From positions 1,440,001 through 1,504,000 of the forward strand of contig CM000150.2 in NCBI GenBank assembly GCA_000004695.1: DNA of 64,000 bases, in the 5' to 3' direction. Both the position numbers and the translations under genes were made by a program. Position 1 is the first letter of the stretch; each line of letters starts with the position of its first letter. Source of the stretch: Dictyostelium discoideum. Lineage: Eukaryota. The notes beneath the pieces are model-generated. The model was not told the origin of the DNA, did no database searches, and saw nothing but the letters and a program-made list of their open reading frames with translations. Shown here one piece after another: positions 2,708 through 39,407 of this stretch.

Positions 2708-3156
2708 TACAAACTACAATTAAATATTTAATTAATAATTGTTGTGTGCTTTTTATATTTTAATTCACTTTTTAATTTTTTTTTTGTTTAAAATTTTTTT
2801 TTTTTTTAAAATAAATAAAACTACTTCGATTTTATCATAAAAATAAAAATAAAAAAAACAAATTAAATAAAAAAATAATAAAAAAGAAAAAAATAAAAAA
2901 ATAAAAAAAAAAATAAAAAAATAAAAAAAACACACGCACTCACGAATACTCTCCGACATTAAACTAACTGTATTTTAGTTTTTTTTTTTTTTATTTAAAT
3001 ATATAAAGTTTTTTTTTTTTATTTATTTATTTTTTATTATTATTATTAGTGCTCTATACGAATAATATAATTATATATATATATATATATATATATTTAT
3101 TTAATTACTAGAATATATATATATATTTATAGTCAAACATATTTTACAATTAAAAA

Positions 3157-4614
3157 ATGGCACAAGTATTTCCTGATGTAATTGAAGAAAAGATTCAAGA
3201 TGATGATAAATTTTTTGGACAAACAAGATTAAAAAACGATGATATAGATTTCAATGATCCAGATAATGTTTTAACAATGAAAAATATTCATAAAACTTAT
3301 TTATTAGGTATTGAAGGTGTACCTGCACTAAGGTTTGTATAAATTATATAAATTTTATAAAAATTAATTAGTGTGCGCTAACATATAAAAAATTATATCA
3401 TTTATTTTCAAAAGAGGTGTTTCAATGGCAATTAAAAGAGGAGAATTTATTTGTATTTTCGGTACATCTGGTGGTGGTAAAACAACAATGTTAAATATTA
3501 TTGGTACAATCGATAAACCTACAAAAGGTGAAATGAAATTATGTGGTAAAAGTAATTATTATTATTATTTTATATATTTTATATATATTAAATAAATACT
3601 AATATTTAATTTTTATTATAATTAAAGCAATTAATCATAAAACAACTGATAAAGATTTAGCATTTTTAAGATTAAGAAATATTGGATTCGTATTTCAAAC
3701 ATTTAATTTATTATCATCATTGACAGCATTGGAGAATGTTGAAATGCCAATGATTTTATTGGGTGAATTATCAGCAAGTGAAAGAAGAGAAAGAGCAATT
3801 TCATTATTAACAAAAGTAGGTATGAAAGATCGTTTAGATCATTTCCCATCCCAACTATCTGGTGGTGAACAACAACGTGTTACAATTGCACGTGCTATTG
3901 CAAATAATCCAGATGTTTTATTATTAGATGAACCAACGTAATGTATATTTTATCATATTATTAATTATTATTATTAATAATTATAAGTATCGCACGAGCG
4001 CTAACTTTAAATTATTTATTTATATATATATATATAAAAATAGTGGTGATTTAGATACAGTAAATACATCAGTGATTATGAAATTGTTAACAGATTTAAA
4101 TAAACAAGAGAATATAACATTAATTATGGTAACACATGATGTTGGTTTAAAAATGTATTCAGATAGAATCATTTGGATGAGAGATGGTAAAATTCAAAGA
4201 ATTGAAACCGTTCAAGAACAATCAAAACGTGAACATTATCAAAAACTATATAAAGAATGCGAATTAATTAATCAAAATCAAAAGAATGGTGTAACTAGTG
4301 TTTTCAAAAATGATGATGATAATAAAAATATTAAAAAGCAAGGTACTTTAACTGAGTTTAGAAGACCAACTGATTATAAATCAATTGCAAGTTATAATAA
4401 TAATAATAGTAATTTAAATAATAATAGTAATAGTAATAGTAATAATAATAGTAATAATAATAATAGTAAAAATTATGCATCATCATCATCATCATCAAGT
4501 GTATTAAATGGAAAATTAAGCCAATCAACTGTAAACAATTCTTCAATTTATAATCATAATAATGATTCTCCATTTTTCAATAGTAATAATAATAATAATA
4601 TCAATAATAATATC

Positions 4615-8031: not shown

Positions 8032-9229
8032 TTAAAATGATTCATCATCAGTGGCATCATCTCCATATTTACTACTGTCACTATCAGTATCAGTAGTACC
8101 ATAGGGATCCTCAGGTAAAATCCACTCTATGTTATTCTTTGATTGATTATTTATAGATGATTTTAATCGATTGAAAATTTTTAAACGATTATGGTAGCAA
8201 TCTATTACAACTTTTTCTAATGAATTTAAATGATGTTCTAAGAATGGTTTTAAGAAATCAGTTTCATTTTTCATATCCCGATTCCAGTCAATATAAAATC
8301 CAATTGAGAATCGTTTAACCCCACTACTACCACCACCACCACCATCATCAGCACAACTATTATCATTAATTTTAATATTTTTGAAATTTTCTATTAATAT
8401 ATTTGTAAATAAATCTTGATAATTTGAAGAGTATACTCCATAATATTCATCAATAGTGATACTTTGTAATGATGGCATTGGTGGTGGATAAATTAAATAT
8501 CCACTTGAATTGATATCGTGTCTATAGGTTTTATCTTCATTAAAAACTTTATTGTTAGGACAACAACAAAATTTGAATTTTCTTAAAGTGCTATCACTTA
8601 ATATTATATCATATTCATCAGTTTTTAAATAAAATGATTCAATTCTTGAGAATAGCAATTCAACAAATTGTCTACTACTTGAGTATGGTATTAATCTAAT
8701 TGAATTATAATCGAAATATAATGGTGGTTGTTTAATTAAACTGAATTGGCTATCATTGTCGAACTGTATCATTGATTTCTTCCATTCAAAATATTCATTA
8801 TTTAATATTTTTGATAATACTTTAAAGAATTGTTTTGAAACTAATGCAAATGATAAAAGATTATCATTTATAATAACTTTGTCCATTCTATCATCAATAT
8901 ACCATAATGAATCTCTAATTATCTTTTCAATCACTATATCTGGTAGTATGAATGATTTCATTTGTTCTTTATTTATTGTAAAATGATTGTTGTTGTTGTT
9001 GCTGTTTCTGTTTTCTCTATTACTATAGGTTGAACCATCACTATAATACCCAAAACTTTCAAAACCATCTAAAATCCTATCCTTAATATTCTTGTATACA
9101 ATATCATGTAAACGATTGATATCATATTGATATGGTGATAATTCAAACTCTTCTTCCATAATTGCTAATCTATTTTTTAATTGATCATTATCATTCTCGT
9201 ATAAATCTATAAACCATTTGTTAAACTAT

Positions 9230-9273
<44 letters not shown>

Positions 9274-9683
9274 TTGCTATTATTATTAATGTCAGAAAAA
9301 TAAAAATAATTGATGACACTTACTCTTTTATCAATAAGTAATTTTTTATAAAGTTTATATTTAAAATAACTAAATTTAATTGTGTTTGTTATTTTTTTAA
9401 AAACATTGAATGAATTATCAAAGAATATATTTAAAATGAAATCAATATATCCTTTTTTATCAAAATAATGAAAATATTTATTTTTATGATATTTGTTGAA
9501 ATAATTTATTGATTTAATTTTAATTTTTTCATTTTCTTTATTATCATTAAATATCTTTAAAATATTAATTAGTTCTAAAAATGTTTTTGGTTTTTCTTTT
9601 ATTGATTTTATTATTTTATATGTTTCTGTTTCTATTTGATTGTTTGTTGCTATCTGTTCTTCAAACTTTCTTTTTTTATTCAT
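8032..9683 (-). CDS. F-box-like domain protein (hypothetical); 2 exons: 9683-9324, 9225-8032
   Basis: ORFs 9207..9683 and 8032..9159 are joined by an intron made of a poly(A/T) tract (donor AGA|GTAAGT at 9323, acceptor TATAG before 9225; 99 nt, phase 0). An F-box-like segment LPDIVIEKIIRDSLWYIDD...LLSFALVSKQFFKVL is present. A Gly run and an acidic C-terminus follow. Confidence 0.5.
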
Positions 9684-9844
9684 TTTTAAAAAAAATCTGT
9701 AAAAAATTGATAAAAAATAAAAAAAAATTCACTTTTTTTTTTTTTTTTTTTAAAATTGTTAATCCCATAAAAAATTTTAAATAAAAATAATTAAGAACCA
9801 AAGTTTAATTTTTAAAATAGGTTGATGTGTTTCCCAACATATAA

Positions 9845-9907
9845 GTTGACCTTACAGCAATCTAATCACAAATTTTTACTTCACAAAAAAAAAACCCCTT
9901 CGTCAAC
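9845..9907 (+). ncRNA. Candidate Dictyostelium Class I non-coding RNA (about 63 nt)
   Basis: The sequence gttgaCCTTACAGCAAtctaatcac...ccccttcgtcaac contains the 11-nt CCUUACAGCAA motif characteristic of Class I RNAs. The 5' GUUGAC and 3' GUCAAC are perfectly complementary and can form the terminal stem. The locus is GC-richer than its poly-A/T intergenic surroundings. A DUSE-like TTCCCAACATA lies only about 10 nt upstream, which is not the canonical -60 position. Confidence 0.5.
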
Positions 9908-10371
9908 TGTCTTTTTGTAAAAAAAAAAAAATCCGAACTTCACTTTTCCATGGAAATAATTTGGTTTTTGAGAAAAAAAAAATATTACTAAATCATTTAA
10001 TTATTTTTTTAAAAAATATATTAAGGAATTATTATTTAATAAATTTATTTAATTTCAATATTATCACACTTAAAATTGTGTACCTCAAATAATAAAAAAA
10101 TTAAAAAATAACAGTTTGAAAATTTAAATTTAAAATAATAATTGCTTTACAATTTTAAAATTAAAGTTCATAAATAAACTATTAATAATAATTATTGTTT
10201 ATTTCTTTAATTGGTAAAATTGATTAATCTATATAAAACAAAAAAAAAAAAAAACCACCTTTCCTCCACTCACCAACCTCTCTACCTTCAAATTTTTCGT
10301 TTTATTCCAAGCTCAATCTTAACTCTTTACAAGATTTTAAATAAATATACATTTTATATATTTTTTTAAAA

Positions 10372-10676: not shown

Positions 10677-12718
10677 TTATTTTTTTGATTTTTTTGATTT
10701 TTTTTCTTCTGGTTCTTCATCTCTATCCTTTCTCTTTTTATCTTCTTTTGATGATGATTTCTTTTCTTTCTTTTCTTCTTTTTCTTTTTTATCTTCTTTT
10801 GATGATGATTTCTTTTCTTTCTTTTCCTTCTTTTCTTCTTTTTCTTCTTTCTTTTCTTTCTTTTCTTTTTTATCTTTCTTTTCTTCTTTCTCTTCTTTCT
10901 TTTCTTTCTTTTCTTTCTTTTCTTCTTTGGCGACTGGAGTTTCTTCAGTCTTTTCTTTCTTATCTTTCTTTTCTTTCTTTTCTTCTTTTTTATCTTCTTT
11001 TTCTTCTTTCTTTTCTTTTTTATCTTTCTTTTCTTTCTTTTCCTCCTTTTCTTTCTTTTCCTCTTTGGCAACTGGAGTTTCTTCTTTCTTTGATTTCTTT
11101 TCTTTCTTCTCCTCTTTGGCAACTGGAGTTTCTTCTTTCTTTGATTTCTTTGATTTTTTTGATTTTTCTTCTTCAGAGGAATCAGAATCGGATGATGAGT
11201 CAGAGTCAGATGATGAGGCTTCTTCCATTTTAACGTCTTGTTTCTCTTGTTTAATTGATGATTCTTTTGAGGATTTAGTGGCAACATCTCTGGTGGTATT
11301 TGTAGTGGCAGATTTAGTATGATCATATTTGGCGACATTACCAGATTTCTCTGGTTTGACGGCATTTAATGATTTTCTAACTTCACGACCTTCAATAGCA
11401 GCGGCTCTACGATCAACAGCACCTTTGTAAGCGATACCATAACTTGTATCACTGACTTCACAGAGAGCATCGAAACGAGCGGATAAAGCAGCTTTAGCGG
11501 CGAGAACTCTAGACATTTTACCTTTGTTCTTTAATGAAGCTTCACCGACGATCTTGGCATTATAGATGAGACCATATTTTGGAGTGTTATGTTTAGTTTT
11601 AAGGGCACGGAAGAGGGCTTTTTCAGCACCGAGAATTTGAATGGTTGAAGCTGGATATTTGGCTAAATTCATCAATGAACCAGCACGACAAATTAAACGA
11701 GCACCAACGATTTCACCAACTAAAATTGTAAGATTTGGAGCGATAGCTTCCATACGAGATTTAAGGTACTCGGTTAATTCGGTGTGGTAAGCTTGAATGG
11801 AAAGGAATTGATCGCAAAGGGCAAAGATATGATCGAGATCCTCTGGTGAAATTTCAGTACCCATAGAGATTTGAGCGGCTTCTTTAACTTCTTCGGCAAC
11901 TTCCTCTGGGAGGATATCGGTGAAATCGGTATCGACAGCAGACTTTCTGTTACCCATTGCCTTGATGGCGTTGGCGTATTGGGTATGATTGGTGATCAAT
12001 TTACCCAACTCTGGGAAATGCCATCCGTACCATTCACGAGCTCTCATTGCGTAAATGTTGATTTCGGTAGTCAAATCATCCAATAATGAGATGGCTTGAA
12101 CGATCATTGTATCGACCTTATCTGGTGAGAACTTTAATTTATATCTACTGTATGAATGTGATAAACCAATTGACATGGCATTCAAATCTTGTTCATTTGC
12201 ATTGACCAATGATTTCAATTGTAAACGAATACCTCTAATCAACTCTTGAGTAGTATCATCACATAAAACTTTGATATTTAATGCGTCCTTGATTGCATTA
12301 CCAAATTTACTATCACTAACAATTAATTGTTCATTTAATTTCTCACTAACAACATTCTTTTTTAAAAAGTTTGATAATGATTCTGGAACTTTACATTCTG
12401 CAATTGCAGTTTGTGCTTCTAATGCATCTAATGTACCATCAAATTTATAAAATTTCTTTAATGAAACACTATTTTTTTAAAAAAAATAAATAAATAAAAT
12501 TTATTAATATTTATTTTTAAAATTTAAAAAAATAATAATAATAATTGTTGAAAAAAAAAAAAAAAATAAAAATAAAAAAAAAAAAAAACTTACAATGAGG
12601 AAGCTTTTTCTGGGGTTTCGAAAAAGTTATTGATGTCAACTGGTTTTGATTTCATTTTACCTTCATCCAAAACCTTGAATAAGGCAAAACCTGCTGATGT
12701 TTCAAATAATACTAACAT
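10677..12718 (-). CDS. nop58: Nucleolar protein NOP58 (box C/D snoRNP core protein); 2 exons: 12718-12594, 12468-10677
   Basis: Exon 1 MLVLFETSAGFALFKVLDEGK matches the NOP58 N-terminus (MLVLFETSxGYAIFKV). Main ORF 10677..12242 carries the NOSIC/Nop domain (AMRAREWYGWHFPELGK, ILGAEKALFRALKTKHNTPKYGLIYNA). The C-terminal KKE/D repeat tail is typical of Nop58. Donor TT|GTAAGT at 12593 and acceptor AATAG before 12468 are in phase (TT+T = Phe). Confidence 0.9.
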
Positions 12719-15101: not shown

Positions 15102-20921
<5,820 letters not shown>

Positions 20922-38643: not shown

Positions 38644-38855
38644 AGGGGGTGAGGCGCACTCTCGTAAATCTCTGAAGTTGTGCAATACAGAGCGAATGCG
38701 TAGAGGTCGAATGATGCAAGCACCAAACATATGACCTCACCTCGAAGAAAAATAAGTTTAATCGAATATGCACATCAACGTGTGATGGCAGAAAGAGATT
38801 AAGCTTTTTAGAACAGATACTACACATGATCAAAGCGAGACGCTTCAAGAAGGTA
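38644..38855 (-). ncRNA. U2 spliceosomal snRNA gene (copy A, minus strand)
   Basis: The reverse complement reads ...GCUUUGAUCAUGUGUAGUAUCUGUUCU..., matching the universally conserved U2 5' region including the branch-point-binding GUAGUA. An Sm-site-like AUUUUUC is present. The 3' end GCAUUCGCUCUGUAUUGCACAACUUCAGAGAUUUACGAGAGUGCGCCUCACCCCC resembles the human U2 3' stem-loops. A T-run follows. GC content is far above the surroundings. Confidence 0.85.
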
Positions 38856-38907
38856 CCTTTTCAAAATGAAAAAACTACTCTTTTGTATTTAAATATATAA
38901 TTTTTTA

Positions 38908-39195: not shown

Positions 39196-39407
39196 GTACC
39201 TTCTTGAAGCGTCTCGCTTTGATCATGTGTAGTATCTGTTCTAGAAAGCTTAATCTCTTTCTGCCATCACACGTTGATGTGCATATTCGATTAAACTTAT
39301 TTTTCTTCGAGGTGAGGTCATATGTTTGGTGCTTGCATCATTCGACCTCTACGCATTCGCTCTGTATTGCACAACTTCAGAGATTTACGAGAGTGCGCCT
39401 CACCCCC
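39196..39407 (+). ncRNA. U2 spliceosomal snRNA gene (copy B, plus strand)
   Basis: An exact inverted copy of copy A (arms 38641-38870 and 39181-39412 are reverse complements). Same conserved U2 features. The two genes are divergently oriented around a spacer of about 310 bp. Confidence 0.85.

Follow-up and report, generated by a model that had tools for sequence, protein, structure and literature searches.

Introduction

Class I RNAs are short non-coding RNAs of Dictyostelium discoideum, for which the literature gives a length of 42-65 nt and a GC content of 32-41%. As a class they are described as cytoplasmic, knockout of a single Class I gene leads to aberrant early development, and binding of the protein Rnp1A has been reported for one member, DdR-21. 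RNA-seq shows that the Class I RNAs of D. discoideum begin at a conserved G. Here we analyze a stretch of 64,000 nucleotides of the D. discoideum genome (GenBank assembly GCA_000004695.1, contig CM000150.2, positions 1,440,001 to 1,504,000 of the forward strand), referred to as the window throughout, in which a preliminary description had proposed a Class I RNA gene in an intergenic region. We are nearly certain that this element encodes DdR-28 (gene r28), which belongs to a set of about 40 Class I non-coding RNAs in D. discoideum.

The curated set of D. discoideum Class I RNAs, the annotations, the tables and the MEME output with which we compare the locus are those of Kjellin et al. 2021 (Genome Res 31:436, PMC7919456). 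Many Class I genes of D. discoideum have a Dictyostelium upstream sequence element (DUSE), with the consensus WCCCAYAA, i.e. [AT]CCCA[CT]AA, and what is found about 60 nt downstream of it is a second element, the TGTG box, and not the mature 5' end (Kjellin 2021, PMC7919456). The consensus of the TGTG box is AAATGTG and its distance to the mature 5' end is variable (Kjellin 2021, PMC7919456). A correctly placed DUSE is present in all the expressed Class I genes and candidates that score high but lack it are not expressed, while runs of T are found downstream of many of the genes (Kjellin 2021, PMC7919456).

Identity and architecture of the element

The identification as DdR-28 rests on three agreements, namely sequence identity, matching chromosomal coordinates and matching flanking sequence. 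At 65 of 65 nucleotides, positions 9845-9909 of the window (+) are the same as the DdR-28 sequence of the curated Class I collection for D. discoideum (ddi_curated.fa; Kjellin et al. 2021, PMC7919456). The published annotations place r28 as a class_I_RNA at DDB0232428:1449845-1449909 (+), with the gene identifier DDB_G0295487 and the GenBank cDNA accession AJ699389 (Kjellin 2021, PMC7919456). When exactly 1,440,000 is subtracted from this position the result is 9845-9909 of the window. The window as a whole thus corresponds to DDB0232428:1,440,001-1,504,000. We take DDB0232428 to be chromosome 1 of strain AX4. The DUSE with its flanks as given in the MEME output of Kjellin 2021, AAATTGTTAA TCCCATAA AAAATTTTAA, is identical to window positions 9753-9780. 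When DDB_G0295487 is set against the window element, the DUSE, its flanks and the variant of the TGTG box are all the same and no difference is found, so that the two are the same gene. This gene is already known, with a GenBank accession, dictyBase curation, an Rfam family model and RNA-seq validation. The gene itself adds nothing new, and what our analysis corrects is the promoter assignment of the preliminary description. The case of DdR-28 also shows that a lineage-specific class of non-coding RNA can be recognized from raw sequence alone.

A search with a covariance model, which had been proposed along with the candidate, gives a match of the Rfam family RF01414 (Dicty_Class_I_RNA) to 9845-9909 (+) at 53.1 bits (E = 1.9e-7), covering model positions 1-56 of 56, where the gathering score of the family is 41.5 bits. 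The corresponding published values for r28 are a covariance model score of 50.2 and a classifier score of 69.1 (Kjellin 2021, PMC7919456). With a score above the curated Rfam threshold and 100% identity to the published DdR-28, the proposal of a Dictyostelium Class I RNA gene is borne out, and every sequence feature quoted in its favor is found in the window where it had been placed. The proposed length of about 63 nt does fit the class, but the mature RNA has 65 nt, from 9845 to 9909, and ends in CUG. The family RF01414 is reportedly also tied to Aspegren 2004, in which the cloning was first described, and to Avesson 2011.

The region reads ...GGTTGATGTGTTTCCCAACATATAA, then from 9845 to 9909 GTTGAC CTTACAGCAA TCTAATCACAAATTTTTACTTCACAAAAAAAAAACCCCTTC GTCAAC TG, and then TCTTTTTGT... 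(features and coordinates are collected in Table 1). The preliminary description had noted a 6-bp 5' arm complementary to the 3' end, and in the Rfam RF01414 alignment all six of these stem pairs are indeed standard ones. The same 6-bp terminal stem is both the minimum free energy and the centroid structure calculated with RNAfold. The last base of the 5' arm, at position 9850, is at the same time the first C of the conserved 11-nt motif CCUUACAGCAA, and except for this C the motif is unpaired in the minimum free energy structure. At the 3' end the mature RNA reads ...GUCAACUG and is followed by TCTTTTT. Comparing these features with the 34 distinct D. discoideum Class I sequences, a GTTGAC start is present in 24, the identical 11-nt motif at the same position in 27, and an end in GTCAACTG in 25. 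The GC content of the mature RNA is 33.8%, compared to 13.8% and 15.4% in the 500-nt flanks.

DdR-28 thus has in common with the RF01414 class the 5' G, the 6-bp terminal stem with the adjacent CCUUACAGCAA, a variable A/U-rich loop and the CUG 3' end, as well as a GC content of 34%, an intergenic location and an upstream DUSE. Its 65 nt put it at the upper end of the quoted length range. The paralogues DdR-59, DdR-31, DdR-33 and DdR-60 are 80-85% identical to DdR-28 and have the same stems and motif, and the loop core ...CAAAUUUUUACU...AAAAAAACC... is common to DdR-28 and DdR-31, -33 and -60. The loop of DdR-28 is, however, 4-6 nt longer than the loops of the paralogues, and its central part is CUUCAC where theirs is CUGAUU. 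Whereas Class I genes are frequently clustered (Kjellin 2021, PMC7919456), DdR-28 is solitary, and a sensitive Rfam scan of the 64-kb window (E <= 1) returned no further Class I-like elements. No tRNAs were found in the window either. A metagenome scan with the pattern GTTGACCTTACAGCAA-N22-50-GTCAACTG gave 0 matches, and a full-text literature search for CCUUACAGCAA returned no papers.

Table 1. Features of the r28 locus, its copies in a divergent strain, and inverted repeats at the TGTG boxes of other Class I genes. Locations without a genome or gene name are window positions.
Feature	Location	Strand	Details
Mature Class I RNA DdR-28 (r28)	9845-9909	+	65 nt; RF01414 match and identity to DdR-28
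Terminal stem, 5' arm GUUGAC	9845-9850	+	pairs with 9902-9907 (Rfam structure line, RNAfold minimum free energy structure)
Conserved 11-nt Class I motif CCUUACAGCAA (DNA CCTTACAGCAA)	9850-9860	+	exact match
Terminal stem, 3' arm GUCAAC (9902-9907), with 3' tail ending ...CUG	9902-9909	+	pairing by Rfam and RNAfold
T-rich tract TCTTTTT	9910-9916	+	directly 3' of the mature end; read from the sequence
DUSE TCCCATAA, putative promoter element of DdR-28	9763-9770	+	exact match to WCCCAYAA; same site in Kjellin 2021
TGTG box, variant TGATGTG	9823-9829	+	Kjellin 2021 Table S2/S3; position checked in the window
Inverted repeat, potential leader hairpin	9825-9842	+	ATGTGTT (9825-9831), loop TCCC, AACATAT (9836-9842)
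r28-like copies	L001: 3763-3828, 3230-3295, 2695-2760	-	repeat unit about 534 bp
AAATGT-gtaaa-ACATTT	r21, r24B, r49, r51, r52, r62		MEME sites, Kjellin 2021 supplement
TAAATGT-gcaa-ACATTTA	r26		MEME sites, Kjellin 2021 supplement
TAAATGT-gtaa-ACATTTA	r24A		MEME sites, Kjellin 2021 supplement
AATGT-N5-ACATT	r23A, r23B, r23C, r46, r50		MEME sites, Kjellin 2021 supplement
TGTGA-taaa-TCACA	r34		MEME sites, Kjellin 2021 supplement
TGTG-caaaaa-CACA	r59, r60		MEME sites, Kjellin 2021 supplement

Conservation, expression and caveats

Loci in other genomes were fetched through relatives of the protein encoded by the neighboring minus-strand gene. In the D. discoideum assembly GCA_054883475.1 there is a single copy of r28, identical to the one in the window and embedded in 665 identical surrounding bases. 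A different picture is seen in a divergent D. discoideum (GCA_054859385.1, contig JBTAPF010000019.1; hereafter L001), in which the neighbor protein is 85% identical. The syntenic intergenic region of L001 carries three tandem r28-like genes of 66 nt each, all on the minus strand and scoring 54.5-55.3 bits. Across these three copies the DUSE, the stem, the motif of 11 nt and the T run do not vary, with T8-T9 at the terminator position in each of them, and substitutions in the RNA are confined to the variable loop. The DUSE TCCCATAA is unchanged in all 4 of 4 r28 copies. Changes are found just upstream of the RNA, where the base corresponding to G9821 is A in all three of the L001 copies and one of them (copy C) reads ATTAAT (ATTAATGTG). 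The triplication looks like a copy-number polymorphism or a recent tandem amplification, although an artefact of the assembly might also account for it. According to published statements it is rare for an individual Class I gene to be conserved from one species to another, and the copy-number variation of r28 illustrates the rapid birth and death that has been reported for such genes.

A GC-richer block, ATCCGAACTTCACTTTTCCATGGAAATAATTTGGTTTTTGAG, lies just 3' of the r28 terminator at about 9930-9975 (+). It is kept in all three of the L001 repeat units (2602-2694, 3136-3228 and 3671-3763) and may be part of a young duplicated unit.

Nothing argues against the identity of the element as DdR-28, and the observations that call for caution concern its mechanism. 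In the syntenic region of D. citrinum (GCA_054859145.1, 3486-4000), which has the same Nop-domain gene and the same neighbor as the window, neither a Class I gene nor the 11-nt motif was found. The best D. firmibasis locus has no r28 orthologue, with neighbors that differ and a synteny that is doubtful. As both of these loci lack an orthologue, r28 is as an individual gene young and possibly redundant, and at this site it appears to be specific to D. discoideum. The folding energy gives a weak signal: the minimum free energy of -3.83 kcal/mol corresponds to z = -1.78 and was equalled by 12 of 200 shuffles. Such a weak signal is expected given that the 6-bp stem is the only structure of the RNA, which makes folding energy a poor discriminator here. 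On the side of function, the available data concern DdR-21 and not DdR-28, and the role of the TGTG box is stated as unknown (Kjellin 2021, PMC7919456).

As a separate observation, the D. citrinum intergenic region contains an isolated AAATGTG that has no DUSE upstream of it.

The unexceptional folding energy and the minimal structure of a single 6-bp stem are also what could be expected if the motif and the complementary hexamers that flank it had come together by chance in spacer DNA, with no RNA gene at all. The preliminary description had itself raised the doubt that the motif might occur by chance. The exact 11-mer CCTTACAGCAA is found once in the 64-kb window where only 0.02 occurrences are expected, and 2 of 100 dinucleotide-preserving shuffles had a match, so that the exact motif is more than a chance match. 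When one mismatch is allowed the motif is no longer significant, with 0.30 occurrences expected and a match in 25 of 100 shuffles, and it is therefore the composite architecture that carries the signal. Against a chance arrangement stand the E-value of the covariance match, which is above the curated threshold in score, the correctly spaced DUSE and TGTG box, and the presence of the gene, conserved and duplicated, in other strains. Since the element is identical to a published RNA that is expressed, with the read counts given below, the idea is in effect disproved already, and we regard its probability as negligible.

The second possibility is that the element is a Class I-like pseudogene or silent copy and not an expressed gene. 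There is precedent for this among D. discoideum candidates with good covariance model scores that are unexpressed, e.g. r45, r57 and r54, and the absence of an orthologue at the fetched D. citrinum and D. firmibasis loci fits with it as well. Silent copies, however, score lower or have no good DUSE at the right distance, whereas the DUSE of r28 is top-scoring (13.88) and correctly spaced. Additionally, r28 is flagged as expressed, and the raw RNA-seq counts for DdR-28 are 142,863 and 152,307 at 0 h, 180,531 and 247,812 at 4 h, and 198,466 and 206,232 at 8 h, with the read coverage validated (Kjellin 2021, PMC7919456). These 1.4-2.5 x 10^5 reads per library can be specific to DdR-28, as its sequence is unique and cross-mapping is limited by the identity to even the nearest paralogues, which does not exceed 85%. 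A silent copy thus seems to us very improbable, and an expressed DdR-28 gene is the reading that we carry forward.

Promoter of the DdR-28 gene

The preliminary description had assigned a DUSE-like role to TTCCCAACATA (9831-9841), which it put only about 10 nt upstream of the RNA (the element is at -13), and had concluded that the true start of transcription or the promoter may differ. We find no match to WCCCAYAA in this sequence. The canonical DUSE, which is also the published one, is TCCCATAA at 9763-9770. Its first base precedes the mature 5' G by 82 nt, and the TGTG box starts 60 nt downstream of this base. The table entries for r28 agree, giving TCCCATAA with a score of 13.88, the box TGATGTG, an inter_dist of 59 and a TGTG-box_dist of 14 (Kjellin 2021, PMC7919456). 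The spacing from DUSE to TGTG box is accordingly normal for a D. discoideum Class I gene, and there is no anomaly to explain. What sets DdR-28 apart from the RF01414 class is the box itself, which is the rarer variant TGATGTG, common to DdR-33 and entered as 0 in the FIMO column of the authors. The rejection of TTCCCAACATA as a DUSE is also seen in the comparison of the r28 copies, among which its CCC varies (TCCC, TCCA, TATA) while the true DUSE is invariant.

Matches to the DUSE consensus are by themselves not informative, as the window contains 8 where 9.4 are expected by chance, i.e. there is no excess. Among these 8 matches, an AT-rich spacer followed by a GC-richer product is found only at r28 and at the DUSE matches of two U2 small nuclear RNA genes. 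The U2 genes are divergent and 339 bp apart, at 38649-38856 (-) and 39196-39403 (+), with Rfam RF00004 scores of 91.1 and 95.4 bits. They provide an internal calibration of the distance from DUSE to start, since their DUSE, ACCCATAA, begins at -60 and -62. They and r28 have in common an upstream [AT]CCCA[CT]AA, behind which lies about 52 nt of AT-rich spacer, although their RNA products are unrelated to DdR-28. In the U2 genes the 60-62 nt lead from the DUSE to the mature 5' end, whereas in r28 the same distance reaches the TGTG box and the mature end is 20-22 nt further on. Adding 60-62 to 9763 gives 9823-9825, and the GTTGATGTG region is for this reason the published TGTG box.

This bears on a further suggestion of the preliminary description, that GTTGATGTG (9821-9829) may mark a second 5' arm. 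If so, the functional RNA would be one of about 89 nt beginning at 9821, in which GUUGAU would pair with GUCAAC as an alternative 5' arm. GUUGAU (9821-9826) can indeed form six pairs, one of them U.G, with 9902-9907, and a spacing of about 60 nt from the DUSE would put the start at 9823-9825. A start there would nevertheless cut off part of the arm, and RNA-seq in the literature places the starts of Class I RNAs at the conserved G. The alternative stem is also weaker than the canonical one (-1.82 compared to -3.63 kcal/mol), and RNAfold always folds 9825-9842 separately instead. Nor is the arm conserved, given the A in place of G9821 in the three L001 copies and the ATTAAT of copy C, which breaks it, while the canonical arm is invariant. 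On the grounds of energy and non-conservation GTTGAT at 9821 was rejected as a 5' arm, and we consider an RNA of about 89 nt highly unlikely; what GTTGATGTG contains is the TGTG box TGATGTG. Both the DUSE-like element and the second arm are contradicted because the r28 copies vary at these places.

An inverted repeat at the TGTG box

The TGTG box of DdR-28 is followed by its own complement, and this turns out to be common in the class. At r28 the sequence from 9825 to 9842 can form a 7-bp hairpin with one G.U pair, and RNAfold gave this hairpin in every putative precursor folded. On its own the hairpin has an energy of -3.4 kcal/mol. Its 3' arm AACATAT is directly followed by two A residues and then by the mature 5' G, and the hairpin as a whole contains both of the oddities that had been flagged earlier, TTCCCAACATA and GTTGATGTG. 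A comparison of the four r28 copies shows arms that do not change and a loop that varies.

Similar repeats are seen at the boxes of other Class I genes (Table 1), often with the complement beginning within 4-6 nt of the box, in a pairing register that varies by subfamily (AAATGT/ACATTT, TGTGA/TCACA, TGTG/CACA and ATGTGTT/AACATAT). We counted perfect complements within 10 nt for the unique sequences of TGTG box plus 10-nt flank in the MEME-3 site table of Kjellin 2021 (n = 17). Complements of at least 4 bp were present at 8 of the 17 sites and of at least 5 bp at 7 of them, though these loci are not independent observations because they are paralogues. At the other end of the distribution are 7 of 17 sites with a stem score of 0, i.e. 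no qualifying complement within 10 nt. When the flanks were shuffled 2,000 times the means were 1.39 sites (at least 4 bp) and 0.33 sites (at least 5 bp), with maxima of 6 and 3, and among 114 NNNTGTG sites from AT-rich stretches of the window not one had such a complement. The score of r28 itself is only 3 bp in this count, because its stem has a G.U pair in it and continues beyond the 10-nt flank. The words hairpin, palindrome and inverted repeat are absent from both versions of Kjellin et al., a check that did not cover the pre-2020 literature.

It is conceivable that the TGTG box is the 5' arm of a conserved inverted repeat, that Class I genes with such a box are transcribed from it, and that a leader hairpin (AUGUGUU-UCCC-AACAUAU-AA in r28) is then removed to give the mature RNA. 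The inverted repeat would start at the canonical distance of 60-62 nt from the DUSE. We put this forward tentatively, as a model that is rather unlikely to hold, and the hairpins are weak at about -3.4 kcal/mol. The inverted-repeat data are equally compatible with a palindromic DNA site to which a dimeric factor would bind. In either case the frequent occurrence of the complement behind the TGTG box leads to a testable model, with a leader hairpin on the one hand and a palindromic protein-binding site on the other.

Proposed mechanism and role of DdR-28

We infer the start site, the polymerase and the molecular role of DdR-28 itself, and the following scheme should be read in that way. The DUSE at 9763-9770 would be required for transcription, which is probably carried out by RNA polymerase III. 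The T run 3' of 9909 is, judging by its sequence, a probable terminator of the RNA polymerase III type, at which transcription would end. There are two options for the start. Transcription could begin at the mature G (9845), in which case the TGTG box might act as a proximal promoter element. It could instead begin at the TGTG box, at about 9823-9825 and so at the canonical 60-62 nt from the DUSE, with a 20-nt leader being trimmed afterwards.

In the resulting RNA the 6-bp stem GUUGAC/GUCAAC is predicted to close a largely unstructured loop of 51 nt, with CCUUACAGCAA single-stranded at the 5' edge of this loop. The exposed CCUUACAGCAA might serve as a recognition surface and the stem might protect the ends. 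By analogy with DdR-21, DdR-28 may accumulate in the cytoplasm as a ribonucleoprotein with the RRM protein Rnp1A (CIBP), and the same analogy suggests that it could contribute to the control of early multicellular development. Since there are many similar genes and the copy number of DdR-28 varies between strains, what it contributes individually is probably quantitative or redundant.

Neighboring genes and other features of the window

Far from DdR-28, at 18390-18573 (-), there are sub-threshold Rfam matches to mir-598 (35 bits, with a gathering score of 69) and SymR (28 bits, with a gathering score of 61). The region is coding-like and richer in GC and A, and both matches are almost certainly due to chance.

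The DdR-28 gene itself is intergenic, lying between the start codon of a minus-strand gene (9683) and the stop of a Nop-domain gene (10677). The distance to the start codon of the first of these had been put at about 160 nt, which agrees with the divergent ATG at 9683 on the minus strand, 162 nt from 9845. The label of F-box gene that had been given to this neighbor is not supported, as neither the pieces of its open reading frame nor the complete 517-aa protein has a Pfam match at E <= 10. The gene (8032-9683, -) is named only as hypothetical in the sources. Its protein belongs to a small dictyostelid-specific family, with D. discoideum paralogues that include DDB_G0268388, relatives in D. 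firmibasis, D. citrinum and D. dimigraforme, and more distant ones in Heterostelium album.

On the other side, the open reading frame at 10677-12242 and beyond (-) encodes a Nop domain (PF01798, E = 7e-83) and a long tail rich in KKE/D, and is probably the last exon of a gene for a Nop56/Nop58-type small nucleolar ribonucleoprotein protein. The 3' end of this gene faces the 3' end of DdR-28.

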